A stretch of DNA of 55,660 bases, taken from positions 1 through 55,660 of the IMG/VR virus record IMGVR_UViG_3300028794_000001. One strand, written 5' to 3'. Of the stretch, positions 944-55,660 are shown piece by piece. The translations under genes were made by a program, and so were the position numbers. This DNA comes from a virus. Each line of letters begins with the position of its first letter. Within the stretch, counting starts at the first letter, position 1. The notes under the pieces are model-generated. The model was not told the DNA's origin. It ran no database searches and saw only the letters and a program-made list of their open reading frames with translations.

Positions 944-959
944 TGGCCCCTGTCCTGCA
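944..959 (+). promoter_or_regulatory. Sigma54-type -24/-12 element TGGCCC-CTGTC-CTGCA
   Basis: The GG and GC dinucleotides are spaced as in the consensus TGGCAC-N5-TTGCW. The block TGCAATAGATACCGAAC-ATG parallels the copies at 25201-25215 and 52064-52078. Confidence 0.5.
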
Positions 960-972
960 ATAGATACCGAAC

Positions 973-1101
973 ATGAACCCGACCATCCGGAACCTCGAAG
1001 CGCAAATCGCCGCGACCCCGGTCAGGGATCAAGCGTCCCTGCGCGCCCTCTACACCAAGCTGTCCCACGTCTACGCGGAGCTGCTCCGCCCTACCAGGTG
1101 A
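973..1101 (+). CDS. Small hypothetical protein (42 aa)
   Basis: ATG 973, TGA 1099-1101, GC-rich third positions. Product: MNPTIRNLEAQIAATPVRDQASLRALYTKLSHVYAELLRPTR. It is below the ORF-track size cutoff. Confidence 0.5.
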   Translation: MNPTIRNLEAQIAATPVRDQASLRALYTKLSHVYAELLRPTR

Positions 1102-15046: not shown

Positions 15047-17029
15047 ATGGCCGACCTGTTCGACGATCTGGCGGCAAAGGCCGCGCAAGCTTACGGGGGC
15101 GCGATTGACCTCGCGACTGCGGTCAGCTCGCCGACCATCGCGCTCCCGCCGAACAGGATCTTGATGGAAGGGAAGTACGCCGTCAGGGACAGCGAAGACC
15201 TGCGGAGGATCGAAGCGCTTCCAAGGCGCTCTGCGACGGTAGCCCCGGAGTCGAAGCACTGGCTGGAGCAAGTCGTCGAGTACATGACCGCGTCGCTCCG
15301 GATCGACAATCCGGCGTGTCAGTGCGCGGCGCTGGGGGCTGTGAAGAAAGACGGATCCCCGGACTGCATTCTGCGTCTGCTCCCCGTGCAGGCGGCGTAC
15401 CTCTATGAGGCGATGCTGATTGGCGGGATTCTCGGTCCAATCGGTGTAGGGCACGGCAAGACGGGGATCGACATCCTGCTCCCGATGGTCATCCCGGGAT
15501 GCAAGGTTGCGGTGTTGCTGCTCCCACCGCGCCTGGTGCCTCAGCTGAAGCACGATTTCAAGCTCTGGTCCCAGCACTTCAGGACACCGAACCTCGCCGG
15601 ATGCCCTCCCTTTCGCGCGGACGGTCGCCCCGTGCTCGAGCTGTTGCCCTACTCCATGCTGTCGACGAAAAGCGGCGCAGGCAAGCTGCTGGAGCTGCGC
15701 CCCGACGTGCTGATGATGGACGAATGCCACAACGCGAAGAAGCCGAAGCCGGGCGCGCGCCCGTCCGCGCGATGGGCGCGAATCGAGGACTTCAAGCGCG
15801 CCTACCCCGCTTGCCGCCACTACCGCCACAGTGGCACGGTCACCACGAAGAGCGTCTACGACTACCAGCACCATTCGGAGGACTGCTTGGGCGATCGCAG
15901 CATCCTCCCGCGCGACCCCGATGCGATGGCCGAATGGGCTGCGGCCCTAGATCCAGTCGACGACCCGGCACCCATCGGTGCGCTTCGCCGCCTGTGCCAG
16001 ATCGGCGAGAACGCTCGGCAGGGCTTCCGGAGGCGCCTGGTCGAGACCGCGGGGGTGGTGGCGACCGAGGAAAGCGCCATCGGGAATTCGCTGTTTTTCA
16101 CTGAACGCAAGGTATCGATCCCGAAAGTCATCGGTGACTTGATCGCGAAAACCCGTCTGAGCAACGAACGCCCGGACGGTGAGCCCTTTGCCGACGGGCT
16201 GCGCAAGGCGGCGTGCCTGCGCGAGCTGAGCGCCGGCTTCTATTACGTATGGTACTTCCCACCCATTGACGGCGTTCCGCAACGCGCTTCCGTGATCGAT
16301 CTCTGGCTGGAGCGACGCAAGGCTTACAACAAAGAACTGTACGCCCGGTTGCTGGCGCCGCAGCCCGGAATGGATTCGATGCTGCTCTGTTGGGAGGCTG
16401 CGACGCGCTGGCACGAGGGCTACGTTTGGATCGATGTGCACGGTCACCGGCACACTGAGCCTGCATATTCGACGAGGGGGCCTTACCCGGTCTGGGCGTC
16501 ACAGCACTTCGTCGGGTGGCGCGAGGTCAAAGACACGGTCGTAAAGCAGACCGTTCCAAAATGGGTGGACGATTTTCTGGTCGCGGACGCCCTCGTGTGG
16601 GCCCGCGCGGAGCCCGGGATCGTCTGGTTCGATCACCGCGCCTTTGGGCTGCGCATGCGCGAGCTTGCCCCGGACCTCGGTTTCTACGGCGGCGGGGACA
16701 AGGACGACGAGCGCATGATCGAGGAGCGTGCTAAGGTGTCGATCATCTGCTCAATTGATTCGCATGGTGAAGGTAAGAAACTTCAAAAGTTCTATCGGTC
16801 GTTGATGGGAAATTTCCCCAAAAACAAAACGCTTGAGCAGGTGATCGGCCGTACGCATCGGCAGGGGCAGCACGCCGACGAGGTGGAGATCTGCTGGTAC
16901 CGCCACACCGACGAATATTGTAAATTCTTTGACAACGCGTATGAGCAGGCGCGGTATGTCGACGAGACCCAGGCGAAGAGCGTCGGGGCTTCACAGAAAC
17001 TCCTGCTCGGATCGAAGGACTGGCGATGA
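15047..17029 (+). CDS. SNF2/DEAD-like superfamily 2 helicase
   Basis: Motif I GVGHGKTG, motif II LMMDECHN, motif VI QVIGRTHRQGQ. Confidence 0.85.
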   Translation: MADLFDDLAAKAAQAYGGAIDLATAVSSPTIALPPNRILMEGKYAVRDSEDLRRIEALPRRSATVAPESKHWLEQVVEYMTASLRIDNPACQCAALGAVKKDGSPDCILRLLPVQAAYLYEAMLIGGILGPIGVGHGKTGIDILLPMVIPGCKVAVLLLPPRLVPQLKHDFKLWSQHFRTPNLAGCPPFRADGRPVLELLPYSMLSTKSGAGKLLELRPDVLMMDECHNAKKPKPGARPSARWARIEDFKRAYPACRHYRHSGTVTTKSVYDYQHHSEDCLGDRSILPRDPDAMAEWAAALDPVDDPAPIGALRRLCQIGENARQGFRRRLVETAGVVATEESAIGNSLFFTERKVSIPKVIGDLIAKTRLSNERPDGEPFADGLRKAACLRELSAGFYYVWYFPPIDGVPQRASVIDLWLERRKAYNKELYARLLAPQPGMDSMLLCWEAATRWHEGYVWIDVHGHRHTEPAYSTRGPYPVWASQHFVGWREVKDTVVKQTVPKWVDDFLVADALVWARAEPGIVWFDHRAFGLRMRELAPDLGFYGGGDKDDERMIEERAKVSIICSIDSHGEGKKLQKFYRSLMGNFPKNKTLEQVIGRTHRQGQHADEVEICWYRHTDEYCKFFDNAYEQARYVDETQAKSVGASQKLLLGSKDWR

Positions 17030-17349
17030 AGGCACTTCCCGGAATGAGTTTGAAGGCGTACCGCGAGGAAGGCGACCGCGCGTTTCTGGGCGTGGTGCTG
17101 AAGGAGGCGGGCGGGAATATCGCCAAGGCCGCGCGACTGGCGGGGCTTTCGCGCACGGGCTTATACCGGCTGATGAGCAAGTATGGGATCGAAGTCGCTG
17201 AGAAAGGAGCCGAACCCATCGTTCCGGTCCTTGGAGAGCCGATGGTTTGCGAGCACGCAAACGAAGCCTCTGACATCTGCGAATGCGATGAGGAGTGCTA
17301 CTGCCGGAAGGGGCTGTGCTACATGCGCAGCGCTGAGGCGCGCGCGTGA
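17026..17349 (+). CDS. Stand-alone NtrC/Fis-type HTH (HTH_8-like) DNA-binding protein with Cys-rich tail
   Basis: LKEAGGNIAKAARLAGLSRTGLYRLMSKYGIE matches the pattern of the C-terminal HTH of Fis and sigma54 activators (..GN...AA..LG..R.TLYRK...YGI). No AAA+ domain. Tail: CEHANEASDICECDEECYCRKGLC. Confidence 0.75.
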   Translation: MKALPGMSLKAYREEGDRAFLGVVLKEAGGNIAKAARLAGLSRTGLYRLMSKYGIEVAEKGAEPIVPVLGEPMVCEHANEASDICECDEECYCRKGLCYMRSAEARA

Positions 17350-24011: not shown

Positions 24012-24310
24012 ACGATCCGATCGGTTCGAATTACGAGCGCGACTGGGGGCAATGCGCGCAGTGCGGTTCGCGTCGACCTGTAAGTAAACTGCAACCGGTT
24101 GCAGTCGACTTTCCAGATGGTCAACAGGCGTGCGCCGATAACTGGTGTGAAAGGTTAAGGGTTCAAAAATGCGTCTCTTCATCGATCCCGGCGCGAACGA
24201 CTTCGGGGCTGCGGTCTTCACCGAAACAGGGGGCGTCTATCGAGCGACGCTCGTTCGGAACGAAGTCGGCCCCGAAGCGTCGGCGCTCGCGCGCGGTGCC
24301 GGCGCGCTGA
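24008..24310 (+). CDS. Possible zinc-ribbon protein; 3-prime end uncertain
   Basis: GTG 24008 overlaps TGA 24009-24011. Product: VNDPIGSNYERDWGQCAQCGS...ACADNWCERL. The frame runs 140 nt into the RuvC-like gene, where the other frame looks coding. Confidence 0.3.
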   Translation: MNDPIGSNYERDWGQCAQCGSRRPVSKLQPVAVDFPDGQQACADNWCERLRVQKCVSSSIPARTTSGLRSSPKQGASIERRSFGTKSAPKRRRSRAVPAR

Positions 24311-24714
24311 ACGGCGTTCTGAACTGGCTGCGGAAGGTAGAGGTTCCCCTTCCGTCGATCATCTCGACGCTCGTGGAAATGCCCTTCGTCTACCCGGGGA
24401 AGAAGACCAAGAACCCGAATAGCGTGATGCTCACCGCGGCCATCGCGGGGGCGTTTGCAGCATTCGGGCTCGACAACCGCAAGGTGACCTCCGTCCTCCC
24501 GCGGGATTGGAAGGGAGGGATGGACGGAGAGGTGTTCATCAGGAAGGTGGTCCAGCCGTCCTGCGAGGACGGCGAGCGTTTGAAGATCGAGCACTGGACT
24601 GCCGCGTTTCCGGCCAGCTACCGGCACAACATCTGGGACGCTGTAGGGCTCGGGTTGTGGCAATTCAAGCGTCTCAAATCCGGGCGTGTTTTCCACGGAG
24701 CTGTTGACGGGTAG
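24169..24714 (+). CDS. RuvC-like Holliday junction resolvase
   Basis: MRLFIDPGANDFGAAVF (Asp), LVEMPFVYPG (Glu), HNIWDAVGLGLW (Asp). Confidence 0.75.
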   Translation: MRLFIDPGANDFGAAVFTETGGVYRATLVRNEVGPEASALARGAGALNGVLNWLRKVEVPLPSIISTLVEMPFVYPGKKTKNPNSVMLTAAIAGAFAAFGLDNRKVTSVLPRDWKGGMDGEVFIRKVVQPSCEDGERLKIEHWTAAFPASYRHNIWDAVGLGLWQFKRLKSGRVFHGAVDG

Positions 24715-24737
24715 CCAGCGACAGTTTTACTGTCAAG
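24704..24737 (+). promoter_or_regulatory. Class I motif: TTGACG-N18-TACTGT within TTTTACTGTCAAG
   Basis: TACTGT ends 6 nt before ATG 24740, which fits a leaderless transcript. Confidence 0.5.
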
Positions 24738-24739
24738 GC

Positions 24740-24979
24740 ATGAAGACCAAGAGCCAAAAGGAGAAACTCACGGAGGCGCTCGAAACGCTTCGCGCGACGC
24801 TTCGGGTGAATGCCCCGAAGCAGTGGACCGCGAAGCAACTTGCCAAGCGGCTGCGCTGCACCCGTGCGACGATCTACAACCGTCTCGAGGCGCTGCACGA
24901 CACGGGGTTCAAGCTGAAATGGGGTGAGAAGCGCGATGGTGCGCGCGGGCCTCTCAGTGCGACGGTCACCGCAGGCTGA
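24740..24979 (+). CDS. Winged-helix DNA-binding protein (79 aa)
   Basis: I moved the start to ATG 24740. WTAKQLAKRLRCTRATIYNRLEALHDTGFKL looks like an HTH_11-type motif. Confidence 0.6.
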   Translation: MKTKSQKEKLTEALETLRATLRVNAPKQWTAKQLAKRLRCTRATIYNRLEALHDTGFKLKWGEKRDGARGPLSATVTAG

Positions 24980-25187
24980 GTTCCAGCGGGTCCCAGATCT
25001 TGCTCGCCATCGCCGCGTCGGCCAACCGCAGCGCCTTCGTTTCAGCAAGCTCCAGGTCGGCGCGCAACGCATCGAACCGGCGCAGGGTGTCTGCAGTCGC
25101 GCGGGTCGAGAAGAGCGCGTGGAGGGCGTCGCGAAGCTCGAACACCTTCGCCTGTGCTGCTTTGGCTTCTGCGTTGATCTCGTTCAT
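24966..25187 (-). CDS. Coiled-coil small protein (73 aa), antisense to the surrounding block
   Basis: I moved the start to ATG 25187 (MNEINAEAKAAQAKVFELRDAL...). It converges on 24740..24979 and overlaps it by 14 bp. Confidence 0.5.
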   Translation of the reverse strand: MNEINAEAKAAQAKVFELRDALHALFSTRATADTLRRFDALRADLELAETKALRLADAAMASKIWDPLELSLR

Positions 25188-25200
25188 GCCCTCTTCTATA

Positions 25201-25215
25201 GCAAAGCCTAGGCCG
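25201..25215 (-). promoter_or_regulatory. Sigma54-type -24/-12 element CGGCCT-AGGCT-TTGC(T)
   Basis: GG-N10-GC register. TTGCTATAGAAGAGGGC-ATG 25187 parallels copies a and c. Confidence 0.5.
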
Positions 25216-25267
25216 TCGTTCAAATCCGCTGAACAATTACCGTGTGAACGCGACACCCACCTAAAGA

Positions 25268-25299
25268 TGGACTGGACTGGACTGGACGCGCGCACTCCA
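25268..25299. promoter_or_regulatory. Class II upstream element, copy b (four TGGAC pentamers + GCGCGCACTCCA)
   Basis: TGGACTGGACTGGACTGGACGCGCGCACTCCA. The identical 17-mer is at 25283-25299. Confidence 0.6.
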
Positions 25300-25335
25300 T
25301 CTGTCCTGATTCAGGACGAAGCGCAGGGGCGCCAG

Positions 25336-25599
25336 ATGAACGAAAGCAAGCAGATGGTCGACGGCACGCCGAGTGCTCGTCTCGCGGACATGAATCCATT
25401 GGTTCGAGCAGCACGCGTGCAGCATCTTCAGGCAGACATGGCGCTTCAGCTTGCGATCCGCAAGGGGCACATCGATGAGGTCGCGCTGCTCGCCCAGCAC
25501 AAAACCGAGTGCATCGATCAGCTGATCGAGATCATGAACGCCGTCGAGCCCGGGTGCTTCGATCTTCCGGAGATGTTCGAGATCGTGGAGGTTCCGTGA
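25336..25599 (+). CDS. Hypothetical protein (87 aa)
   Basis: I moved the start to ATG 25336 (MNESKQMVDGTPSARL...). The stop overlaps GTG 25596. Confidence 0.55.
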   Translation: MNESKQMVDGTPSARLADMNPLVRAARVQHLQADMALQLAIRKGHIDEVALLAQHKTECIDQLIEIMNAVEPGCFDLPEMFEIVEVP

Positions 25600-38311: not shown

Positions 38312-39133
38312 TCATGTGGTCACTGGCAAAGCGTCGACCGTCGTGTACCAATTGCCGCCCGCGGTGTCCCCCTCGTGCTCGACGGTCACAGCCCGGAACG
38401 TCCCCTTGACGGAGATCGAATCGAGCTTGATCTTCCCGCCGGGGCGTATTTGGGGTTGAAGCAGGGACTTGATCTTCAGATAGGAGGGCCCCCCTTTCTT
38501 GTCGGGGGTCCCGAATTCGGGGGAGCCGACCAGCCCGCTCTTCGCGGACAGCACCGTGATGGTGCTCGTGGTGGCGGTCTGTCCCAAGATCTGCAGGCGC
38601 CCGTCCTGCACGGACCACGCGAACCCGCGCCCCTTCAGCAGTCGTTCCAGCTCGGTAGCAGCGCGCCCGTGCGCGACGTACCCGTTCAGGAAGGACTCGC
38701 TGATCGTCACGTCGCGCGAGTTGCCGGGGTCGATTCCGAGCGCCGCGACGACGTCGTTCAGGACGGTACGAACGGGCGTATTTGCGCCGTAGCTCTTCGA
38801 GATCTGCCCGAACAGGTAGGCGCGTTCACCGTCGCCGCAGCGGAGGATGGTGCTCCAGTCGCCTTTGTCGTGCTCGTGAACGTGGGTGATAACCCGGGCG
38901 TCACCCGCGAAGATCTGCGAGACCGTCCCAACGTAGCCCGCCTGCAGCACGACGCGCGCGCCCTTCGCCTTCATCGCCGCTCGCGTCTGCTGGGACAGGT
39001 TGGTGATTGTGATCTCTGCGCTGTTCGGCTCCTTGCGCGAGGTCTTTTTCACCTTGTACTGGACGCGCAGATCCGTCACCAACAGGCCATCAACGGCGAC
39101 GGAAACCCGGCGATCTCGGAGTTGGTTAGCCAC
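38312..39133 (-). CDS. Baseplate hub protein (gpD/XkdQ-like)
   Basis: NSAEITITNLSQQTRAAMKAKGARVVLQAGYVG pattern and its position after the tape measure genes. Confidence 0.68.
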   Translation of the reverse strand: MANQLRDRRVSVAVDGLLVTDLRVQYKVKKTSRKEPNSAEITITNLSQQTRAAMKAKGARVVLQAGYVGTVSQIFAGDARVITHVHEHDKGDWSTILRCGDGERAYLFGQISKSYGANTPVRTVLNDVVAALGIDPGNSRDVTISESFLNGYVAHGRAATELERLLKGRGFAWSVQDGRLQILGQTATTSTITVLSAKSGLVGSPEFGTPDKKGGPSYLKIKSLLQPQIRPGGKIKLDSISVKGTFRAVTVEHEGDTAGGNWYTTVDALPVTT

Positions 39134-40098: not shown

Positions 40099-41603
40099 GG
40101 AACCCCCATACCAGCCGCGGCTTCGGTGAAGACGCGCTCGAGCGCCTTCGCGTTTTCGTCGGCGATCATCTTGGAGAAGCGATCAGCGCTGACCCCCATC
40201 GGCGAGGCCTCGACGGTCGTGGTTATGCTCGGGCTAAAGACGAGTCCCGGCCTTTGGCCGCCACTGCTGACCCCCGCCGCCGCAGCGGGGGAGGCCGCGC
40301 CCCCGCCAAACAACCGCCCGACACCCCCGAACATCTCTTGAGCCAGGCCGCGGTTGACGTTCATCACCGTGCCGGCCGCCGATTCGATTTTCGAACCTTT
40401 TTGGAGACCAAGCACGTCCTGGAAGAACTTGTCCGAGGACATCTCTCCCTTGAGGTAACGCCACGAGGATTGGAGATCCCCCATCACGCGCAGGCCGACT
40501 TTCAGCCACGTCAACCAATCAGGATCGGTCGGGTGAGGCTCGGTCAAATCGTCCAGCAGCTTGACCCATTTTTCTCCCCAGCGCTGGGTAAGTGATTCGC
40601 CCCCGGTGAGGAATTGATAGATGTCCTCGACGACCAGCGCCACGATTGCCGCGAGCGCAAACCACGCCAGCCCGATTGCGGTCGAGCTGCTCGCAAGGTT
40701 CTTGAACCCCTTGTACAGCTCGGGCAGCTGGCCGACGATCCCGCCGATTGCGTTCCCGACCTGCGACGCAAGCACAATCGCAAGGGCGATAAGCGCCGCG
40801 CGCAGCACCCAGGTATTGGTGGCCAGGTACTTGACGATCTCGACGAAGGGCTTCGCGAGTTGCCAGAGGTTCTTGAGCGCGCGAGCTACCAGCCCCAGCG
40901 CGGCATGCACGCGCGCGGCGATCAGCTTCCGGTTCACCTTCATCCACTCGATGAAGACGTTCACCGCTTTGGTAAGAGGCTCGAGCAGCGGCTTCGCGAT
41001 GGTGTAGGCCAACCCGCGGAACGATGCGTTCGCGACGTCGATCCGGTCGCCCAGCTCGTCGGTCGCCTTGATCGTGCTCTCGTCCAGCACGAGCCCGAGG
41101 TCATCGAACTCTTGAGCGAGCTGCGCGATCTTCTCGGAGCCTTCGCGCAGGAACGGCACGAGTGCGGCACCGCTGCGCCCGAAGCGCTCCATTGCGAGCT
41201 TCGCCGCTTCAGCGCCCTTCCCCTTTTCGGTGAGCGCCTTGATCTTGTCGGCGACCTTCGAGATCTCAGCGCCGACGTCCTTCACCCCGTTCTTGCGAAC
41301 GGCGAAATTCATCGCCTGCGCCAGCTCTTCGAAGCCCACCCCCGACAGTGACGCCACGTGGCCGAGCTTCTGCAGGTCCGTGGTAGCCGTGCCGGTGCGC
41401 GCGGCGAGATCGTTGATCTTCGACCCGTAATCGACGGTCGATTTGACCATCCCCGCCAGCGCGACGGTCAGCCCTCCCGCCACTGCGCCGATGGCCAGCA
41501 GGCCCGTCTTGAGCCCGCCTATAGCTGCGACGGCATGCCCCAGGCCCGACTCGTCGACGTCGATCCCCAGCTTGGCGAACAGCTCGGTTACTGGCACCGA
41601 CAC
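40095..41603 (-). CDS. Tail tape measure protein (502 aa)
   Basis: GSKINDLAARTGTATTDLQKLGHVASLSGVGFEELAQAMNF core, helical with hydrophobic segments, positioned after the chaperone pair. Confidence 0.85.
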   Translation of the reverse strand: MSVPVTELFAKLGIDVDESGLGHAVAAIGGLKTGLLAIGAVAGGLTVALAGMVKSTVDYGSKINDLAARTGTATTDLQKLGHVASLSGVGFEELAQAMNFAVRKNGVKDVGAEISKVADKIKALTEKGKGAEAAKLAMERFGRSGAALVPFLREGSEKIAQLAQEFDDLGLVLDESTIKATDELGDRIDVANASFRGLAYTIAKPLLEPLTKAVNVFIEWMKVNRKLIAARVHAALGLVARALKNLWQLAKPFVEIVKYLATNTWVLRAALIALAIVLASQVGNAIGGIVGQLPELYKGFKNLASSSTAIGLAWFALAAIVALVVEDIYQFLTGGESLTQRWGEKWVKLLDDLTEPHPTDPDWLTWLKVGLRVMGDLQSSWRYLKGEMSSDKFFQDVLGLQKGSKIESAAGTVMNVNRGLAQEMFGGVGRLFGGGAASPAAAAGVSSGGQRPGLVFSPSITTTVEASPMGVSADRFSKMIADENAKALERVFTEAAAGMGVP

Positions 41604-46413: not shown

Positions 46414-46922
46414 TCGTCACCTCGTAGCACGACCGCCGAGCTGATGCTGTTCACGAGTTGCCCGGTGTCCACCAACGGGCGGGAGCTTCCCTTGCGGTCA
46501 ATCGTCTCCTGCTTAAGGGGCGGCGGAATCCCGTCGCCCGTGGTGACCCTCCGCTTCATGTCGTTCTCGATCTGCAATCCGATCAGCTTCAGCCCCGCCT
46601 CAATCGTCCCGCGCCCTTCGTACACCCCGCGCACGACGTTGCGCAGCTGGCTCATGTACTTCGGCTTGTTCGCCTCGAAGGTCGCCCGGATGAAGCTGCG
46701 CTCTGGGATGTTCGCCGAGGGCGCGCCGAACTCGTGAATCGCCGCCAGCTGGGTGTTGGTGATCGGCTTCCCGTTCACCTCGCCGTGCTCTTCCTCCGCC
46801 TTCGCGCCGATCACGCCCGCCTTCACGTACGCGCCCTGATCGCGAATCGCCTTCAGCACATGCCCGAGCTTGTCGAAGCCCCGGTCGATCTCGCGAACGC
46901 TAAACTTGACGCGGGTTTTCAC
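46410..46922 (-). CDS. HK97 gp10-like tail completion / neck protein
   Basis: I moved the start to GTG 46922 (GTGA overlap). AAIHEFGAPSANIPERSFIRATF matches the gp10-family HEFG...P.RPF pattern. Confidence 0.7.
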   Translation of the reverse strand: MKTRVKFSVREIDRGFDKLGHVLKAIRDQGAYVKAGVIGAKAEEEHGEVNGKPITNTQLAAIHEFGAPSANIPERSFIRATFEANKPKYMSQLRNVVRGVYEGRGTIEAGLKLIGLQIENDMKRRVTTGDGIPPPLKQETIDRKGSSRPLVDTGQLVNSISSAVVLRGDE

Positions 46923-47284
46923 GGGACCCAGGGCCCCCCGAAGCTCAGCCGCTTCAGACGCAGGTACTCCTTGCCGTACCCGGTGGAGTCGAGTGGGTTC
47001 GAGCCCTGCGCCACGCTGAGCGCGTACATCCGGGAGACGCTCCCGACGGTCTCGCTCTGCACCGGTCCGCGCGCGCCCGCGTTCTGAGCGGACGCCATCG
47101 CACCCAGATGCGCGGCGAGCGCGCGGCGCGCGCGGTCCGCCTTGGCCGTGCTGGGCCAAGTCGCGTCGTGGATCTCCTCGTCGTTGACCTGCGCAAGGAT
47201 GTCGTTCTGCGTCCCGACGGCGAGCGCCGCAAGCGCCGCGTCCCCGGGGTACGCCGTCGTGACTTGAGCCCACGTGATGCTCAT
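46919..47284 (-). CDS. Head-tail connector (gp6/DUF4054-like)
   Basis: First gene after the capsid terminator. Sequence ...STGYGKEYLRLKRL. Family recalled from memory. Confidence 0.6.
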   Translation of the reverse strand: MSITWAQVTTAYPGDAALAALAVGTQNDILAQVNDEEIHDATWPSTAKADRARRALAAHLGAMASAQNAGARGPVQSETVGSVSRMYALSVAQGSNPLDSTGYGKEYLRLKRLSFGGPWVP

Positions 47285-47295
47285 CTAGGACCTCC

Positions 47296-47333
47296 AAAAA
47301 GAAAAACGCCGCGCTCCGGGGGGGACGCGCGGC
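47296..47333 (-). terminator. Rho-independent terminator after the major capsid gene
   Basis: Minus strand: GCCGCGCGTC-CCCCC-GGAGCGCGGC (10-bp stem) followed by GTTTTTCTTTTTGG. Confidence 0.7.
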
Positions 47334-47371
47334 GCCGAGGTGCGGAGCGCGAGCGCCCCCGTCCTCTCCGA

Positions 47372-48307
47372 CTAGGCCGGGGTGATACCATCCCCATAAA
47401 TTACGGACTTGGGATACGGAGCTACCACACCGCCGGTCTTCAGGCGAGCGTTGACCACGTAGACGAAGTTCTTCTGCTGGGGCGCCAGCTGCTCGTACTC
47501 GATGGACATCAGCAGGTGGAGGTTCTGCAGCTTGGGATCGTACGCGACCATCCGACCGTCGCTCGACCCGCCTGCGGCGGAGTTGCGCTCCCACCCGACA
47601 ACCTCGACGTCGGTCCGGGTGCCCTTGAAGAACTCCAGGATCGTGGTGTCGCTGGTCGAGCTGCGCGCGGTGTTGCTGATGTACTGCAGCGCCGCGGTCG
47701 GCAGCACGAGCCGCTTGGGGGACTCGACTTCCTTCGTGTCGGTGATCACCTGGGAGATCATCCCGTTCATGTCCCGGAGGATCTGATCGGGAGTCTTCGT
47801 GGTCCAGAGCTTCGAAGAGCCCGTACCGTCAGCGGGGACCGTGTAGGTCGCCGTGCTGGCGATGTTGAGCAGCCCCTTCAGGCCAAACGTGCTGTCGCCA
47901 GTGGCGCAGACGTCGTCGAGGTACTGCGCCAGACCCTGGCGGGTGGCGTAGGCGCGCTCGCGCTCGAGCGGGCGCCCGCCCTTCATCGCGGCCTGGATCT
48001 CATCGAGGGAGTAGCTGAACGCGAGGCCGAAGCTGCGCAGGGAAAAGCTGAACTCAGTTCCCTTGGTGTTGGCCAGCGGCAGGTCATCCGCCATGTCGAT
48101 CATCGGCGCCGGCTTCGCCCGCCAGTCGTACTGACGGTAAGTGTACGTCTCGGCCCCTGCGGCGAGCTGCTTGGTGGGCAGGAACTTCCGGCCCTTCAGC
48201 TCGGCGTACTTCACATCGAAGGACTCCGCCGCGATCTCCTCCAGCTGGCGCTGGAAAAAGACGTTCTCGGCGGCGTCGAGCGACTCGATCTTTCGGTAAT
48301 GGAACAT
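47372..48307 (-). CDS. Major capsid protein (DUF2184 / encapsulin-like HK97 fold)
   Basis: FFQRQLEEIAAESFDVKYAELKGRKFLP...GAETYTYRQYDWRAKPAPMIDMADDLP is typical of this capsid family. Followed by a strong terminator. Confidence 0.88.
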   Translation of the reverse strand: MFHYRKIESLDAAENVFFQRQLEEIAAESFDVKYAELKGRKFLPTKQLAAGAETYTYRQYDWRAKPAPMIDMADDLPLANTKGTEFSFSLRSFGLAFSYSLDEIQAAMKGGRPLERERAYATRQGLAQYLDDVCATGDSTFGLKGLLNIASTATYTVPADGTGSSKLWTTKTPDQILRDMNGMISQVITDTKEVESPKRLVLPTAALQYISNTARSSTSDTTILEFFKGTRTDVEVVGWERNSAAGGSSDGRMVAYDPKLQNLHLLMSIEYEQLAPQQKNFVYVVNARLKTGGVVAPYPKSVIYGDGITPA

Positions 48308-48346
48308 GGCGTTTCGGGTCCTTGCTGTGAGAGGGGCTGCGAAGGG

Positions 48347-49213
48347 TTACGCGTAGGTCAGCTTGAGGGTAGCGGGCTTCGCCCCGTTGACCTGAACAAC
48401 GACGAGCGTGTCTTCGGCGACGGTGTTGGCGACCGCGACCTGGAACAGCCCGGCCGAGGTGGAAGTCATCCATGCGAAGGTGGGCGCGTTGGTCGCGGCG
48501 GAAGCGCGGTTCAGCGTCCCGTTCCCGCCGTCGGTGAGCGCGCCTTGGCCGGCGGTCACAGGGACGGCCGTGATGAAGACCTCCTTCGTCGCGGACACCG
48601 CCTTGCCCCGCTTGTCGGTGATCACGCCCGAGACGGTGATCGAGTTGGAGGCCTCGGCGGCCGCGGTCAGGGTGACCAGCAGCTCAACCTCATCGGCCTG
48701 CTCGCTCGCCCAGTTGACCGCGGCGTCGAACTCGACCAGCGCAGGCTGAGTGGTGGTCCCGCCGAAGAGCACGCGAGCGCCGGGCACCAGAACGCACTTG
48801 CCCGAGTCGCTGTCATTGCGGATCTTCCCGAGCTGGGTGTTGCTCCCGCCATCGGAAGTGATCCGGCAGTAGACCGAGTCGCCAACGGCCATCGTCTCTT
48901 CGACGGCCATGTAGACCCGGCCCCACTCGGCCACGTTGCAGGCCGCGCCGGACTTGATCGCAGCCTCGCCCGTGAGCGAATCTGGATCGCGCGCGAAGCT
49001 GTTCACCACGATCCCGGCGATAGTGTCGCCAGCGTCCGCGGGGAGATCGCACTTCTTGTACTGCCCGGACTCGGACTTGAAGGCGACGAACACGCCCGAC
49101 GGGATGTCCGCGCCCTGGTCATTGACGTACGTGCCCAGGCGTCTCGGACCGGTATCGCCGAGCTGGCCCGAAAACGCGCCGGAGAAAGAGCGGGAGTAGG
49201 TGGTCTGCGACAT
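48347..49213 (-). CDS. Head decoration protein (DUF2190-like N-terminus) with Ig-like C-terminal domain
   Basis: Lies between the scaffold and capsid genes. IPSGVFVAFKSESGQYKKCDLPADAGDTIAGIVVN pattern, then a T/A/V-rich beta domain. Confidence 0.68.
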   Translation of the reverse strand: MSQTTYSRSFSGAFSGQLGDTGPRRLGTYVNDQGADIPSGVFVAFKSESGQYKKCDLPADAGDTIAGIVVNSFARDPDSLTGEAAIKSGAACNVAEWGRVYMAVEETMAVGDSVYCRITSDGGSNTQLGKIRNDSDSGKCVLVPGARVLFGGTTTQPALVEFDAAVNWASEQADEVELLVTLTAAAEASNSITVSGVITDKRGKAVSATKEVFITAVPVTAGQGALTDGGNGTLNRASAATNAPTFAWMTSTSAGLFQVAVANTVAEDTLVVVQVNGAKPATLKLTYA

Positions 49214-49249
49214 GGTCGGCTGTCCTTGTTCGTGAAAGGCGAGAGTGGG

Positions 49250-50356
49250 TTACTTGGTAGCGAGGGCGGCGTTGTACTTCGCGGTCGCAGCGGCGACCAG
49301 GTTGGTCGGCGAACCGGAACCCGGGGCGGGCGGCGTGGTGGAGTCCGAGCGCGGGTTGGAGGAGGCGACGCGGAGCGCGGCGAGCGCGGGGTTCACGCGA
49401 GCGTGCGCGGCCAGCTCCGCGTCAAAGCGAGCCTCGACGTAGGCGGCGGACTTGCCCTCTGGCATTTCGCCCGCGAGCTTCTCAATCACCGCGAGGCGCA
49501 CGGCGTTGTCGTCCTTCCCATCGAAGCTGGCCTCAGCCCCGACGATCTCCTTCGCCTTGGACTCGAGCGCGGCGCGCGCGGTCGCGGCGGCCAGCGCCTT
49601 CGCGGGCGCCTCCGCCAGCTGCGCGGTCAGGCTGGCGACCTGCTTCTCTGCGGCGTCGGCGCGCGCGCGCTGCGCGTCGCCCTTCGCCTGGGTCTGCTCG
49701 AACAGCACCGCGACCGCCTCGTCAACCTCGATCTCGGTTCCGCTGTCCAGCTTGATCTTGCGCTTCATGGGCTCGGGCTCCAGTGCATCAGGTGGTGAAA
49801 TGGCGGAATCGGACGCTAGCATCGCCGCGTCTTCGGTGTCCATCTTGACCCGGATCTCGGGTCCAGCTCGACCCACGTCGACGATGGCCGCATGATTCCC
49901 GCGGATGTTCCGCTGAATCGCGTCGTATTTCTCACCGTCGGGAGTGACCCCGGAAGTCATCTCGAGATCGCACACGTAGCCGAGGGAGATTTGGGTCTTG
50001 CCCTTTTCGACCGCGGCGATCACCTTTGCGTCGGTGAGCATGATCGACCCGCGCATCTTACTGTCTTCGCGCGCGGGCGCGCCCACGGTTCCGACCTGGA
50101 ATTGATGAGTGTTTCCGGGGGTCAGCAGCCCGACCGGCGGATGGTCATTCGTCACTGGCATCAGGTCGAAGGAAGCGACCGAGTCGGTGTTGAAGACTTC
50201 ATCAGGTGGGCGGTACTCGCGGGTGGTCGCGCCGTCGCGCGTGCGGCGGTAGGTGAACACGCCCGCTCGAGTGAGGTACGCGTCAACGCGCAAATAGCCG
50301 TTGTCCAGTCGGACTGGCTTGCGCAGTTCACCGCGATCAGAACGAAAAACACCCAT
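49250..50356 (-). CDS. Head scaffolding / maturation protein (DUF2213-like)
   Basis: DNGYLRVDAYLTRAGVFTYRRTRDGATTREYRPPDEVF...MPVTNDHP, then an Ala-rich coiled-coil C-terminal half. Confidence 0.75.
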   Translation of the reverse strand: MGVFRSDRGELRKPVRLDNGYLRVDAYLTRAGVFTYRRTRDGATTREYRPPDEVFNTDSVASFDLMPVTNDHPPVGLLTPGNTHQFQVGTVGAPAREDSKMRGSIMLTDAKVIAAVEKGKTQISLGYVCDLEMTSGVTPDGEKYDAIQRNIRGNHAAIVDVGRAGPEIRVKMDTEDAAMLASDSAISPPDALEPEPMKRKIKLDSGTEIEVDEAVAVLFEQTQAKGDAQRARADAAEKQVASLTAQLAEAPAKALAAATARAALESKAKEIVGAEASFDGKDDNAVRLAVIEKLAGEMPEGKSAAYVEARFDAELAAHARVNPALAALRVASSNPRSDSTTPPAPGSGSPTNLVAAATAKYNAALATK

Positions 50357-50400
50357 GAGGTCGAGTTGACCCCATGGGTGGCTGTTACGTCAAGGCGACC

Positions 50401-50610
50401 CTACCGACCGGCGTCCGGCTTCAGCGCAGCACACCCACGAAGGCAAGCATCAACCGCGACCGGATCCGTGTACCGACCGCACACTTCCCGGACGCATGTC
50501 TGGTACCGCTGCTCACGGTCGCTTCCGAAGGCGCACCACGCAAGCGTCATGTGGAGAGCCCCGAAGAACAAAGCGGCGCCCGAAGCTACAGCCAACGTGC
50601 CGCGGTTCAT
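50401..50610 (-). CDS. Small exported Cys-rich protein (69 aa)
   Basis: I moved the start to ATG 50610 (ATGA overlap). Product: MNRGTLAVASGAALFFGALHMTLAWC... with 6 Cys. Confidence 0.5.
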   Translation of the reverse strand: MNRGTLAVASGAALFFGALHMTLAWCAFGSDREQRYQTCVREVCGRYTDPVAVDACLRGCAALKPDAGR

Positions 50611-51200
50611 GGGAGCACCTCGCACGCGCCGATGTGCGGCGCACCGATCCTACAGCCGGGAAGGCACTTCGGTGTTTCGTAACTGAACGGGGCTCCTAGT
50701 GCGCACTCCTTGAACACGAAGTTCCCTTGTTCGTCGGGCGTGAACGGGGCGCCCGTCATGTGTAGCTCATGGAACTGACCGGGGGGTGAGTTCCCAGCTC
50801 CCCCCGGCGGGCTTTCGGCGAAAGAGGCGAGCGCGCGCTCGAGCGGGCTTCCCGGCGGGGCGATTGGAGGCGCCTCGATTCGAAGATCCGCCAGGATCAT
50901 GGTGACGTGATCGATCCTCACATTGAGCGCGCTGTCCTCGAGATCGCTCATGGCGATTGTGGTCGCCTCGATGCACTCGTCGATGGTGTCATTGCGCAAG
51001 TCGGCCAGCGTCCCCCCGTCTGGCGCGAAGCGGGTGTTGACCGTGAGCCACTGCGCGAATTGGCGCTGCGCGTCCCGTCCGCCGTCCAGCTCGAGCGCTG
51101 CGGCGAGGATCAGCAGCGCCTCGCTGCGAATCAGGATTGAGGGGGCGTCTTGCGCGACCAGTCGCAACAGCCGTTCACCGCGATTCTTGAGCTTGTTCAC
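50607..51200 (-). CDS. Hypothetical protein (197 aa)
   Basis: I moved the start to GTG 51200, which overlaps TGA 51197-51199. The longer track ORF would overlap the upstream gene by 37 nt. Confidence 0.55.
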   Translation of the reverse strand: MNKLKNRGERLLRLVAQDAPSILIRSEALLILAAALELDGGRDAQRQFAQWLTVNTRFAPDGGTLADLRNDTIDECIEATTIAMSDLEDSALNVRIDHVTMILADLRIEAPPIAPPGSPLERALASFAESPPGGAGNSPPGQFHELHMTGAPFTPDEQGNFVFKECALGAPFSYETPKCLPGCRIGAPHIGACEVLP

Positions 51201-51559
51201 TTGCCACCCGCCTTGGCGAGGATTGCGCGGCAATCGGTCTCAGCCGCTTCAGCGTACTTCTTAAATTGAGCCGCGGTAGGTCCTTTTGCATTATGTATGT
51301 TATTAAACACCCAGATAGCAGACTCGCACACCCGAAGTGCCTCTCCCAGCAGGTCCGCCTCCGCGCACTCAACGGCGCGCGGGCCGCAGTGCTTGTCGTA
51401 GGAATTCACGGCGGCGACGATTAGATCGCCGTCATTCCCGTCCATGAACGGACGATCGCAGAGCACGGTTGCGCCGTTCGAAGCCGTGAACGCTGGACTG
51501 GACTCCTCACCGTCTGCATTTCTGTCGTACTTCCAAGGCGGCGGCGTGTACTTGCTCAC
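51197..51559 (-). CDS. Hypothetical protein, PPWKY-type (Ea22-like class)
   Basis: GTG start (GTGA overlap). Product: MSKYTPPPWKYDRNADGEE...GDLIVAAVNSYDKH. Confidence 0.6.
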   Translation of the reverse strand: MSKYTPPPWKYDRNADGEESSPAFTASNGATVLCDRPFMDGNDGDLIVAAVNSYDKHCGPRAVECAEADLLGEALRVCESAIWVFNNIHNAKGPTAAQFKKYAEAAETDCRAILAKAGGK

Positions 51560-51795
51560 AGCGCCCTCCCGCCGTCGGTCTTTTGTGGCTCAGCGACCAA
51601 GCAGTCCGGGCCGGAGTTCCGCTGCAGCTTCGCGGTCCCCGCGTCGACCGGGCACACCGACTTGTAGACGATTTTGTACGGGCCGGTCTGCGGCGTTCCG
51701 TCGTCGCAGGGCTCCCCGGTAGCGGGGTCGACGGGGCAACCGCAAGCGGCGACGAGGACCAACGGAAGCAACAGGACGAATCGAAGGGTTCTCAT
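51556..51795 (-). CDS. Small lipoprotein (79 aa)
   Basis: MRTLRFVLLLPLVLVAAC: signal peptide plus lipobox. 5 further Cys. Confidence 0.65.
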   Translation of the reverse strand: MRTLRFVLLLPLVLVAACGCPVDPATGEPCDDGTPQTGPYKIVYKSVCPVDAGTAKLQRNSGPDCLVAEPQKTDGGRAL

Positions 51796-51863
51796 GAAGG
51801 CTCCTTACATTTCAATACTGAACGTTTGTTCAGGTGAGCGACTACTTCCGCCCACCTCGGCTA

Positions 51864-51885
51864 CCGGGCCGCCGAGGCGGCCCGG
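51864..51885. terminator. Perfect 9-bp GC hairpin 6 nt after the stop of 51892..52050
   Basis: CCGGGCCGC-CGAG-GCGGCCCGG. The T-rich tail (TTCGTTTT) is on the plus strand only. Confidence 0.35.
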
Positions 51886-51891
51886 TTCGTT

Positions 51892-52050
51892 TTAGAACCC
51901 CTGTGCCTTCAGCCAGTCGGAAAGGGAGGCGGTCTCACCCTTGGCTTTCGCCGCATACCAGGCCGACACCCGCGCCTGCTGGGCCCGCTCTTCGGTACCG
52001 CGGGGGGCCACGTTCTTCCCGGTGCGCTTCTTCTTCTCGGTCTCAGTCAT
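51892..52050 (-). CDS. Small basic protein (52 aa)
   Basis: ATG 52050, TAA 51892-51894. Product: MTETEKKKRTGKNVAPRGTEERAQQARVSAWYAAKAKGETASLSDWLKAQGF. Not in the ORF track. Confidence 0.5.
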   Translation of the reverse strand: MTETEKKKRTGKNVAPRGTEERAQQARVSAWYAAKAKGETASLSDWLKAQGF

Positions 52051-52063
52051 GCCCGTATCTATA

Positions 52064-52078
52064 GCAACCTCGGGGCCA
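52064..52078 (-). promoter_or_regulatory. Sigma54-type -24/-12 element TGGCCC-CGAGG-TTGC(T)
   Basis: The best match of the three to TGGCAC-N5-TTGCW. 13 nt separate the GC from ATG 52050. Confidence 0.55.
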
Positions 52079-52149
52079 AGTTGAGGCTTCGGCCAACCGC
52101 TCTGAAATCCTCAAGGTAACTTTAAAACCACACGCGGCCAGGGCAAAAT

Positions 52150-52171
52150 TGGATTGGACGCGCGCACTCCA
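52150..52171. promoter_or_regulatory. Class II upstream element, copy c (TGGAT TGGAC GCGCGCACTCCA)
   Basis: The identical 17-mer is at 52155-52171. It lies between the Mu-F-like gene stop (52188) and the sigma54-like element. Confidence 0.6.
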
Positions 52172-52187
52172 CATGTCCGAAGTTCGG

Positions 52188-53168
52188 TCAGTCTTCGCCG
52201 GCCGGCGGCCCCTCCGAAGCCGCGAACAGATCGTCTAGCACCGGGTCGGCGAAGCATCGGCACTGGTAGTCGTCGCCGGGGTGTCCGGTCTCACCGGTGC
52301 GCGAGCTGATCACCGGAGGGTCATCCCAACGCTGCAAGGTTCCATCCAGCTCCGCGTGATCATCACGTACGCGCGAGTCGTTCACGGTGCGCCAGATGTA
52401 CGAGTCGACGCCCAGCGCCTGCTGGCGCGAAGCGTTCAGCTCGCCGTAGAACTTCAGCGTTTGATCTCGGGCGATCAGCTTGGCGCGGGACTCGCTCACC
52501 TCGTACCGGTCCTCTATCTCCGCGACCATCTGCTCGTGGCGCTCGCCCGTGCGGATCCCGTTAATCACCCGCTGCTCGACTTGATCAAAAAACTGCTGAG
52601 GGATCGACTTGATCAGCGCCACGTTCTCGGCCGTGAAGTCCTTGATCCGCTGGGTCAGCCCCGGCTCGGCGATCACCGGGTCGATTCCGAGCTTCGCCTG
52701 GATCTGCTTCCCGAGCTGCTCGCGCTGGAAGGTGGACGTCCGTTCGGCGTACTTGCGCGCGAGCTTGGCAAGATCGCTCGGCGCCCATGCGCGATAGAAC
52801 TGTTCGCTGATCCGGTCGAGCATCTTGTTCACGCGCTTGCCCGGGTCCATTGCGTCGAGCCGGAAGCGCGCGGGGAAGCGAAGGATCGCTTCGTGGTACC
52901 CCATCAGCTCACCGTCGATTCGCACCGAGTCGCCGCGACGCTCCGCCGCGCGCTCGGTCAGCTCCGGCAGAAGGGGGATCAACCGCGCGTTGACCAGCAC
53001 CTTCGCACTGGCGATGACCTCGCGCAGCTCGGCGAAGTAGGCGAGCTGGATCGCGGTGGGCGTGAGCGGCCTGTATTGCCCGCGCGGCGGGCGCAGCCTG
53101 CGCCGCGCCGCTACTTGCTCAGCGAGGCTACGTACTCGACGCGCCATCGAAGGTCTCCAGGAACTCAT
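52188..53168 (-). CDS. Head morphogenesis protein (Mu F / SPP1 gp7-like)
   Basis: YIWRTVNDSRVRDDHAELDGTLQRWDDPP...GHPGDDYQCRCF. The alternative start ATG 53147 would shorten the overlap with the upstream gene. Confidence 0.85.
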   Translation of the reverse strand: MSSWRPSMARRVRSLAEQVAARRRLRPPRGQYRPLTPTAIQLAYFAELREVIASAKVLVNARLIPLLPELTERAAERRGDSVRIDGELMGYHEAILRFPARFRLDAMDPGKRVNKMLDRISEQFYRAWAPSDLAKLARKYAERTSTFQREQLGKQIQAKLGIDPVIAEPGLTQRIKDFTAENVALIKSIPQQFFDQVEQRVINGIRTGERHEQMVAEIEDRYEVSESRAKLIARDQTLKFYGELNASRQQALGVDSYIWRTVNDSRVRDDHAELDGTLQRWDDPPVISSRTGETGHPGDDYQCRCFADPVLDDLFAASEGPPAGED

Positions 53169-54033: not shown

Positions 54034-55660
54034 CTACTTTCCGAAGCCCCCGGGCTTTTTCCCGAATCCGCCTCCTCCGGATGGAGGCTTACCTTTCGCG
54101 ACCGGCTTCCCGCCGAACCCTCCTGGCTTGCCCCCGCTCTTGGGCGGGAAGCCTCCGCCGCCCGGCGCGCCACCCGCCTTGGCTGCCTCCAGGTTCATCT
54201 GAGCGGCCTCGTCGTCCGCGGCCTTGCGCTCGGCCGCCATCGCCGAACGGTCGGAGGTCGCCAGCTTGATCTCCGCACTGAAGGTGTCACCGCCCCACAG
54301 GGACACCGCCCCCTCCTCAGGGGTGATCATCTGGTTGGTAATCGCGAGTGCCACCATCTCGACCACAGCCTTCCGACGCTGCGCTTCTTGCAACTCGTCG
54401 AGTTGCCACAGCGGCTTCCATTTGATCGACCATTTCTCGGGCAGCTTCAGGCCCATCGCTTGCGCCTTCAGCTCGCAGACCTTGCGCACGATCTTGGAGA
54501 GATCTCTGACCTGCCCGGCCTTCACGTCGTCGTAGAACCAGCGGATATTGGCGTCGCCCGTCGCGTTCAGCCCCGCGGGGGATTCGCCCATGAGCTTCGA
54601 CACAGGGATGCGCGCGGCTGCGGCGAGCCTCGTAGCGAAGCGGTCGAGCAAGTCCGGCAGGCCTGTAACCGTGGTGGTCTTGCGCTCGAAGTCTTCGCCG
54701 TCCGCGTCGAGCATCACGGAGTTCAGCACCGAGCGCGAGTAGTCCGCCGCGCGCACGCGGTTGCGGAAGCGCTGCGCGTCCTCGGGATCCTCGCTGGCGA
54801 CGAGGTCAGCCAGACCTTTCATCTTGAAGATCGTCTGGGAAAAGTCCTGCATCAGCACGCCGGTCGCGGCCCAGCTGGATTGGAAGTCCCGGACAATCTC
54901 CCAGCAACGGGTGAGCGTCGAATCCCCCCACCCATTGACCGACTCCCGCCGATGGCGCTTCGACACCACCACCCCGTCGAACCGGACGATCCGGGACTCG
55001 TGGACGATTTGCGTTCCGACCAATCGCCCGAGTCCATCCATATTGTCCGGGGTCAGGTAGTAGGTCTCGATCTCGCCGTACTTCGGCGCACCGGGATCGC
55101 CATACCAGGTGGCAGGGGAAAGCTCGCGCGGATGCAAGACGTTGATCCACTCGAATGCCCTCACGCGCTTCGGGTCCAGAGGCTTGCTCATGTCCCGCTG
55201 TCCGTCGTCGGCGCCGAGCAGCCACGCCCCTCCCCCATACGCGCGCGCGTAGGTGCGCGCCTCGTAGATCTTGGAGAGCAGCTCCATCTCGTCCAGTGCG
55301 TGCTCGATTTCCTCGAGCGGGTCGGGCCCCTCGGGCTGCGGCGCGCCGGGGGCGCCCGGGGGCTGGCCCTGCTTCACAAAGGGCGGGGGTTTGGCGGGCT
55401 GCAGCCCGCCCCCCGCGGCGGGGGTTTCCTCGCCCGGGCGCACAGGCTGCGCGTCGGGGTCCTTGGGGGGCGGGGCGCCCTCGCCCGGTTTCGCTTCCGG
55501 ATTGGGCGTCTCCCCGGGCTTCTCGGAGCCTGCGGCTTCCTTCCCCTTGATCTCCAGCGCTCCGCCCGGTCCCTTGTTCTCGGGGGCGTTCGGATCCGGT
55601 TGACGGGGCGCCCCGCTCATCATCGGATCTGGTTGAAGCCCGTTGGGCATTTCCGCGGGC
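54034..55660 (-). CDS. Portal protein, C-terminal part (continues from 128..825 across the circular junction)
   Basis: EARTYARAYGGGAWLLGADDGQ..., a DUF1073-like core and a G/K/P-rich C-terminal tail. The frame has no stop upstream of 55650 and joins the 1..825 frame. Confidence 0.9.
   Translation of the reverse strand, partial: PAEMPNGLQPDPMMSGAPRQPDPNAPENKGPGGALEIKGKEAAGSEKPGETPNPEAKPGEGAPPPKDPDAQPVRPGEETPAAGGGLQPAKPPPFVKQGQPPGAPGAPQPEGPDPLEEIEHALDEMELLSKIYEARTYARAYGGGAWLLGADDGQRDMSKPLDPKRVRAFEWINVLHPRELSPATWYGDPGAPKYGEIETYYLTPDNMDGLGRLVGTQIVHESRIVRFDGVVVSKRHRRESVNGWGDSTLTRCWEIVRDFQSSWAATGVLMQDFSQTIFKMKGLADLVASEDPEDAQRFRNRVRAADYSRSVLNSVMLDADGEDFERKTTTVTGLPDLLDRFATRLAAAARIPVSKLMGESPAGLNATGDANIRWFYDDVKAGQVRDLSKIVRKVCELKAQAMGLKLPEKWSIKWKPLWQLDELQEAQRRKAVVEMVALAITNQMITPEEGAVSLWGGDTFSAEIKLATSDRSAMAAERKAADDEAAQMNLEAAKAGGAPGGGGFPPKSGGKPGGFGGKPVAKGKPPSGGGGFGKKPGGFGK
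55534..55660. repeat. Terminal direct repeat, second copy of 1..127
   Basis: Exact identity to bases 1-127. Confidence 0.9.

Follow-up and report, generated by a model that had tools for sequence, protein, structure and literature searches.

Sigma-54 (RpoN) promoters of the NtrC and NifA type, such as glnAp2 and nifH, carry a GG at -24 and a GC at -12, 10 nt apart within TGGCAC-N5-TTGCW, and are served by an upstream site about 80 to 150 bp away that works in either orientation, can stand between divergent promoters and depends on the face of the helix. Enhancers of this kind usually lie at -80 to -150, and their distance, indifference to orientation and dependence on phase are the hallmarks of NtrC/NifA-type systems. 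Experimental use of sigma-54 by phages was found only for YuA-like phages, whose promoters are weak in sequence and for which neither an enhancer nor an activator has been defined. Here we describe a viral locus that shares the features listed above for glnAp2 and nifH: the sequence TGGCCC-CGAGG-TTGCT on the minus strand at 52078-52063 (site c) of IMG/VR record IMGVR_UViG_3300028794_000001, a stretch of 55,660 nt that was analyzed at its full length and is called the window below. We put at about 0.7 the probability that site c is a genuine enhancer-dependent sigma-54 promoter, one of four in this genome. The pairing of a putative sigma-54-type promoter with a repeated 17-mer as its upstream enhancer is well supported, and the observations that carry it are the motif, its placement, its repetition, its conservation in relatives and its helical phasing.

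The closest phage precedent is Pseudomonas phage YuA (Yuavirus), which a passage in PMC10914365, citing Ceyssens et al. 2008, states to be dependent on sigma-54. The YuA record, NC_010116, annotates three high-activity promoter-trap fragments with a “-24/-12 consensus” (38392-38570, 40888-41035, and 47152-47312), and the first of these lies between gp54 (minor head/head morphogenesis) and gp55 (scaffold), with the major head gene farther on, the same junction as that occupied by site c. No enhancer-binding protein is annotated among the features in positions 1-50000 of that record, a likeness to the window. Both phages are without an RNA polymerase of their own, and both use host sigma-54 in the region for particle formation, a use that here is predicted. 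The dependence of YuA was reportedly confirmed in an rpoN mutant and so was tested by experiment, whereas sigma-54 use in the window is predicted from sequence. YuA also differs from the window phage in showing no DNA match to it and in being a siphovirus, where the structural genes here are those of an E217/Pa193-type myovirus; the likeness appears to be one of strategy and not of descent. A repeated, conserved, and phased upstream element and near-leaderless starts are seen in the window clade, and we regard the window as a probably independent and, in its sequence, much clearer case of a known phage sigma-54 strategy. Its unusual details would be a phased enhancer on a virus that carries no activator of its own, together with sigma-54 transcripts that have almost no leader; we know of no description of leaderless mRNAs from sigma-54 promoters.

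Comparison with the cellular systems brings out further differences. The window element is viral, no activator is encoded next to its targets, and the start codon falls at about +1 to +4, so that there is neither a 5' untranslated region nor a Shine-Dalgarno sequence. Late control by Mu Mor/C, lambda Q, and T4 gp55/gp33/gp45 resembles the window in that a repeated cis element marks co-regulated promoters, that of the head genes included, and activation at a distance finds its nearest conceptual parallel in the sliding clamp of T4, a “mobile enhancer.” These systems differ in that sigma-70 polymerase works together with an activator or antiterminator from the phage, or the phage supplies a sigma factor (gp55); their sites lie around -10 to -55, and none has a -24/-12 element. 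Homologues of these regulators did not turn up in family scans of the tested window proteins.

Site c forms part of a cassette (cassette c) with two sister cassettes elsewhere in the window:
52063 to 52078, minus strand: -24/-12 element of site c, with GG at 52077-52076 and GC at 52065-52064; 12.1 bits.
52150 to 52178, minus strand: enhancer-like element of 29 bp, reading GGACATGTGGAGTGCGCGCGTCCAATCCA on the minus strand; its core is the 17-mer, and from its centre to the predicted start downstream it is about 111 bp.
52050 to 52052, minus strand: predicted transcription start; canonical sigma-54 spacing, with the C of the GC at -12, gives +1 at 52052 and places the A of the ATG (52050) at +3.
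852 to 975, plus strand: sister cassette a, with a reversed enhancer at 852-880, the site TGGCCC-CTGTC-CTGCA at 944-959, 13 nt, and the ATG at 973 of an open reading frame (ORF) of 42 amino acids.
25185 to 25392, both strands: sister cassette b, with one enhancer at 25268-25306 between two divergent sites.
25215 to 25200, minus strand: site b(-), CGGCCT-AGGCT-TTGCT, with an ATG at 25187.
25362 to 25377, plus strand: site b(+), CGGCAC-GCCGA-GTGCT, with an ATG at 25390.

A preliminary description of this DNA counted two mismatches between site c and TGGCAC-N5-TTGCW; there is one, an A-to-C change at -22. It correctly placed the motif within the 137-bp gap that follows a Mu-F-like gene (52051-52187, between the stop at 52188 and the ATG at 52050). 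The distance of 98 bp that it gave to the 17-mer is right for a measurement between the middle of that repeat (52163) and the -12 GC (52065-52064); the gap from motif to motif is 76 nt. Sites were scored with a position weight matrix (PWM) that is our own approximation of the published sigma-54 consensus, at a cut-off of 9 bits. Site c, described earlier as the best sigma-54 match, does take the top score of the genome, tied with b(+) at 12.1 bits each, and sites a and b(-) rank 14th and 18th.

The context of site c is not due to chance, as judged from its rank in the genome, the confinement of such sites to gaps with the 17-mer, the spacing to the ATG and conservation in relatives. Correctly oriented matches of at least 9 bits are confined to 3 intergenic gaps out of the 26 that measure 60 bp or more, and all three hold an exact 17-mer; the gap of cassette b has one such site on each strand, pointing outward. 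An ATG at +12/13 follows 4 of the 20 matches of at least 9 bits (0.49 expected), namely the four cassette sites, a count not reached in any of 200 simulated genomes. The pattern GG-N10-GC, two doublets with exactly 10 nt between them, occurs in window sites a, b(-), b(+), and c and in 13 sites of relatives. One further sigma-54-like match, TGGAAAGTCGACTGCA on the minus strand at 24100-24115 (11.3 bits), stands in the gap 24012-24168, antisense to both flanking genes and with no 17-mer nearby; it is probably a chance match.

The 17-mer TGGACGCGCGCACTCCA has exactly three copies in the window, starting at 857, 25283, and 52155, all on the plus strand and all members of a 49-nt repeat family; the copy of cassette c occupies 52155-52171. 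Each cassette spans about 130 bp and includes a 29-bp enhancer that, in the orientation of the promoter, reads GGACA-N2-TGGAG-YGCGC-N2-GTCCAGTCCA, a form common to the window and to relatives L208, L001, L003, L004, and L220. The 17-bp core, TGGAG-N7-GTCCA, is arranged like the dyads of NtrC-type systems (TGCAC-N7-GTGCA). The centre of the element is 64.5 to 96.5 bp away from the -24 GG, which places it at about -89 to -121 relative to the predicted start. Seven element-promoter distances fall at 65, 75, 86, and 96 bp in spacers that differ in length and cannot be aligned, and these distances are helically phased (R = 0.92 at a period of 10.5 bp, Monte-Carlo p = 0.0007). The element is reversed in cassettes a and b(+), and in cassette b a single element is placed between two divergent promoters; this reversed and shared use appears to be enhancer-like behaviour. 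We consider a role of the 29-bp element as a putative activator-binding enhancer for site c well supported by these arrangements. The enhancer of cassette b is extended by four tandem TGGAC pentamers at 25268-25287; cassettes a and c have two pentamers each, those of c within TGGATTGGAC. An A+T-rich tract in the spacer between enhancer and promoter is found in site c and L004 only.

Among 185,579 species genomes, the enhancer pattern had 9 matches, roughly what chance would give and mostly in coding DNA, and scans of IMG/VR with enhancer-plus-promoter patterns returned chance matches only. We weighed a connection of the enhancer with the promoter of the portal gene and dropped it, the spacing being different in the window and L001.

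The relatives are metagenomic contigs that were found through homologues of the Mu-F protein, with 55-74% identity in the core set; a scan with the single Mu-F sequence found nothing. The datasets SRR26786846, SRR30224746, and ERZ28594158 contain relatives. Downstream of the Mu-F homologue they carry the following sites:
L208: TGGTAC-CGGAA-CTGCA.
L001/L002: TGGCAC-CGGAG-CTGCA.
L003: TGGCAC-CTGTT-CTGCA.
L004/L005: TGGCAA-ATGAA-TTGCT.
L220: TGGCAA-GCTGA-GTGCA.

These sites score 12-16 bits by the PWM, above site c of the window, and all six independent sequences (the window and five relatives) keep GG-N10-GC unchanged at the orthologous position. In the alignment the GG, TGC, and ATG columns are fixed, and variation is seen in the 5-nt spacer and in the flanks. 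No similarity is recognizable by eye among the first ORFs that follow the promoter in these phages, so the conservation appears to belong to the signal and not to coding sequence. In L220 the promoter is kept ahead of a leader of about 40 nt with GGAG before the ATG, so the motif belongs to the promoter and is not tied to the start codon. Further sigma-54-like sites stand before small genes adjoining the portal gene in L001 and L005. In L001 (5230-5700), sigma-54-like promoters at 5609 and 5273 on the minus strand share another upstream repeat, ...GAGGA-N-ATCTACCCATC..., and one phage may carry more than one class of enhancer.

More distant contigs, L126 (48% Mu-F identity) and L138/L140 (37%), have very strong sites of up to 18.8 bits together with other upstream palindromes:
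L126, 6588-6782 and 7760-7925: upstream palindrome TTGCAC-GGC-GTGCAA (TTGCAC-N3-GTGCAA), with ordinary leaders that contain a Shine-Dalgarno sequence.
L138, 7460-8450, and L140, 7770-7900: upstream palindrome TATCGG-N5-CCGATA, with leaderless ATGs after TTGCTCTATAG.
The difference in palindromes between sub-clades would fit adaptation to different hosts or activators.

The distance from promoter to start codon is nearly constant. An ATG lies 12-13 nt past the 16-mer in 13 of 14 sites (window, L001-L005, L208, and L220) and in 3 more in L138/L140, and a pyrimidine occupies -1 at the sites with this spacing. The ATG at 52050 is not preceded by a Shine-Dalgarno sequence, and the mRNA is predicted to be leaderless or to have a leader of 2-3 nt. 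The portal gene also has no Shine-Dalgarno sequence, and in the window, L001, and L005 a TANNNT hexamer stands exactly 7 nt before its ATG (TACCTT, window 826-850; TATGTT, L001 5690-5721; TAAGGT, L005 2075-2103). The conserved hexamer and the missing Shine-Dalgarno sequence suggest a leaderless, sigma-70-type portal gene start; the host apparently translates mRNAs without leaders.

Around the promoter, the genes and hairpins of the head region are as follows:
52188 to 53168, minus strand: Mu-F/SPP1 gp7-like head morphogenesis gene (PF04233, phrog_324), upstream of the promoter.
51892 to 52050, minus strand: basic ORF of 52 amino acids, MTETEKKKRTGKNV..., first gene of the unit; G+C at third codon positions 0.83; no family match and no PHROG.
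51863 to 51886, strand not assigned: 10-bp G+C hairpin past the 52-amino-acid ORF; centroid -25 kcal/mol, z = -2.5.
51556 to 51795, minus strand: lipoprotein-like gene of 79 amino acids.
51197 to 51559, minus strand: gene of 120 amino acids.
50607 to 51233, minus strand: gene of 208 amino acids.
50401 to 50609, minus strand: gene of about 69 amino acids.
49250 to 50356, minus strand: head maturation protease/scaffold-type gene (Pa193_gp24 family in relatives); phrog_530 at 2e-88; 64% identity to the PF09979 gene of L003.
48347 to 49213, minus strand: decoration (“cement”) protein gene; phrog_563; 79% identity to the PF22758 Phage_cement gene of L003.
47372 to 48307, minus strand: major capsid protein gene; phrog_264 at 6.5e-67; 70% identity to the PF09950 gene of L003.
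47296 to 47333, minus strand: intrinsic-terminator-like hairpin with a 12-nt loop and TTTTTCTTTTT, past the capsid gene, read directly from the sequence.

Much of the preliminary description of this region stands: the Mu-F-like identity of the upstream gene was borne out by PF04233 and phrog_324, the scaffold, decoration, and major capsid genes downstream by PHROG matches and by L003 homologues with Pfam families, and the capsid terminator at 47296-47333 by a hairpin and T-run read in the sequence. Its statement that the leftward gene run has no other obvious promoter agrees with the lack of a sigma-70-like promoter in 46800-52600. The proposal of a late promoter for the head genes fits the position of site c ahead of them but not a head-specific role, as cassettes a and b precede small non-structural genes. 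The four small genes over 50401-51795 are tightly packed, abutting or overlapping, and no leftward terminator was found between site c and the capsid terminator.

We infer a model in which sigma-54 binding, the start site, the extent of the transcript and the activator are all predicted features. Host sigma-54 RNA polymerase would bind the -24 GG and -12 GC at 52078-52063 as a closed complex, and an activator on the 29-bp element (52150-52178, about 111 bp upstream) would loop the DNA from one face of the helix to drive formation of the open complex. Transcription would start at, or 1-2 nt before, the ATG at 52050 and yield a leaderless or near-leaderless mRNA. The leftward transcript would run through the 52-amino-acid ORF and the small overlapping genes to the protease/scaffold, decoration, and major capsid genes, ending at the terminator at about 47333-47296.

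No protein that could serve as the activator in its entirety was recognized in the phage. All six frames lack GAFTGA, GESGTGKE or another Walker A of the enhancer-binding protein (EBP) type, and an RpoN box, and Pfam scans of 40 phage proteins found no Sigma54_activat, sigma factor, or RNA polymerase domain. A phage-encoded activator was rejected, these scans having given only two DNA-binding candidates:
17026 to 17349, plus strand: HTH_8 (Fis/NtrC-type) protein of 107 amino acids with a Cys-rich tail, overlapping the helicase stop by 4 nt; no ATPase domain.
24686 to 24979, plus strand: HTH_11 winged-helix protein, the final gene of the replication arm, directly before cassette b; a homologue lies at the end of L223.
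ATPase activity could come from neither of them. Among solved structures, the HTH_8 protein is closest, if weakly, to the DNA-binding domains at the C-termini of FleQ and NtrC (E = 0.04-0.1); a search of 5.8 billion proteins gave no homologue, and relatives L222-L224 do not have it at the syntenic position, which makes it a weak candidate. The position of the HTH_11 gene resembles that of late-gene regulators of other phages. As no AAA+ EBP is found in the phage, the activator is most likely a host EBP recruited via a phage-borne copy of its site.

Several points weigh against reading site c as a sigma-54 promoter for the head genes. Taken by its consensus match alone, it is what chance would give: allowing up to one mismatch yields 1 match where 1.18 are expected (74 of 100 shuffles contained one or more), and 14 matches with up to two mismatches were found against 20.5 expected, with no enrichment. 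The bare consensus statistics were dropped as an argument, the match count not being above chance. The C at -22 is non-consensus. PWM score and function are only loosely linked, because the experimentally active YuA fragments score below 7 bits; none of the three has a plus-strand match of at least 7 bits, whereas sites of this clade score 12-16 bits. The required AAA+ activator is hypothetical, none being recognized in the phage, though that lack says nothing about whether the DNA itself is a sigma-54 promoter. No match to the IHF pattern WATCAANNNNTTR with up to one mismatch lies between enhancer and promoter, where many sigma-54 promoters, though not all, have an IHF site or an intrinsic bend, and the lack of an IHF-like site in the window is a further difference from glnAp2 and nifH. 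The trait is patchy among relatives: L206 and L207 (49-53% Mu-F identity) and MW202816 have no such sites. No terminator was found between the Mu-F gene and site c, so read-through from the portal operon may contribute to head-gene mRNA, and capsid expression may not depend wholly on sigma-54. The hairpin at 51863-51886 might also limit transcription into the head genes; its T-run, TTCGTTTT, is on the plus strand only, which makes it a canonical terminator only for rightward (antisense) transcription, and for leftward transcription it could act as an attenuator or stabilize RNA.

The last two points lead to an explanation that we judge unlikely, in which the site is real, bound by sigma-54 or conserved, and most head-gene mRNA is read-through from the portal promoter, with the cassette boosting or timing expression or serving the 52-amino-acid ORF and its transcript stopping or pausing at the hairpin at 51886-51863. 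The terminator-free passage from Mu-F to the cassette and the strong hairpin directly past the 52-amino-acid ORF fit this account, as does the portal gene's own -10-like TANNNT, 7 nt before its ATG and kept in L001 and L005. A second sigma-54-like site past the first small gene of L003 suggests short units, and a passage in PMC10914365 describes the transcription units of YuA as short. However, the hairpin is missing a leftward T-run, the overlapping or abutting genes from 51795 to 50401 are operon-like, and the promoter of L004 stands about 750 bp ahead of the protease/scaffold gene with nothing else between, all of which speak against this account.

Other machinery might instead read a promoter that mimics -24/-12, either sigma-70 redirected by a phage protein on the 29-bp element or an unrecognized phage sigma-like factor, with TATAGA as the -10 element; we hold this to be quite improbable. 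It draws on three of the four window sites, which read TGC(T/A)ATAGA, on L138/L140, which read TTGCTCTATAG, and on the geometry of TATAGA, 7 nt, and ATG, which suits a -10 element at a leaderless start; the phage also has HTH proteins and no AAA+ activator. A conserved class of YuA promoters is thought to need a phage cofactor, according to a passage in PMC10914365 and the YuA GenBank record. Yet the -10-like hexamers are not conserved: they are missing in b(+), L003-2594, L003-2266, L005, and L220, all of which keep GG-N10-GC, and for that reason a sigma-70 or extended -10 reading of TTGCTATAGA was rejected as the main explanation. The letters that are conserved are those of the sigma-54 consensus (TGGCAC/TTGCW) at exact spacing, the phased activator site at about -90 to -120 is atypical of sigma-70 activators (about -40 to -60), and the proteins scanned include no sigma domain. 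That the promoter resemblance is coincidental, GG-N10-GC being incidental to 17-mer/29-mer cassettes that serve a repressor, partition, packaging, or replication, seems very improbable indeed. A single consensus match with one mismatch is expected by chance per genome, and the 17-mer keeps to the same strand regardless of the direction of the neighbouring gene, but four sites exclusively beside three repeats, a fixed ATG spacing, retention in six diverged orthologous regions with better consensus matches, and helical phasing preserved despite changes in spacer length all speak against coincidence.

A broader proposal, which we advance tentatively and consider on the doubtful side, is that a clade of uncultivated E217/Pa193-like myoviruses runs several operons, head genes included, on host sigma-54 via its own phased enhancer, with leaderless mRNAs and with a hijacked host EBP or a noncanonical phage protein (the HTH_8 and HTH_11 candidates) as the activator. 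If sigma-54 control of the head genes is true, virion production would be tied to host RpoN and to the signal that controls the activator, the outcome of infection would depend on host physiology, and loss of rpoN would be a route to resistance. The compact cassettes would then offer a clean system for the opening of sigma-54 promoters by a virus without an AAA+ activator, and portable sigma-54 parts with near-leaderless starts for synthetic biology.

The window has an exact direct repeat of 127 bp at its ends (1-127 = 55534-55660), which marks it as a phage genome of 55,533 bp that is either circular or terminally redundant. Its G+C content is about 64%, and no tRNA genes were found in it. 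Its large-scale layout is as follows:
about 973 to 24979, plus strand: replication arm, with small ORFs, a VapE-like primase, an SF2 helicase, a family A DNA polymerase, an MT-A70 methylase, and HTH proteins.
826 across the origin to 26574, minus strand: structural arm, with portal, Mu-F-like, head, tail, baseplate, and lysis genes.
826 through 1/55533 to 54034, minus strand: portal ORF, spanning the contig junction.

A close relative among cultured phages was rejected, none being found; the sole GenBank relative is MW202816. Megablast against GenBank phages gave no DNA match to the window, and the best identity of its capsid protein to a GenBank phage is 33%, to unrelated myoviruses. A search of Rfam with 50200-52400 gave no matches. 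Within that interval, a hairpin of 13 bp with TTTTTCGTT after it (50350-50380, minus strand) includes the ATG of the protease/scaffold gene (50356) and could be a terminator, an attenuator, or a start-codon mask ahead of the head genes.

The large terminase (Terminase_6N/6C) and a likely small subunit are encoded at 5116-7285 on the minus strand, about 4 kb from the portal gene, between the plus-strand block of small ORFs after cassette a and the plus-strand replication genes. A search with the helicase matched a single uncultured virus; in L223 (3363-6434), the helicase homologue is split by an intein with a LAGLIDADG endonuclease (PF14890, PF14528).

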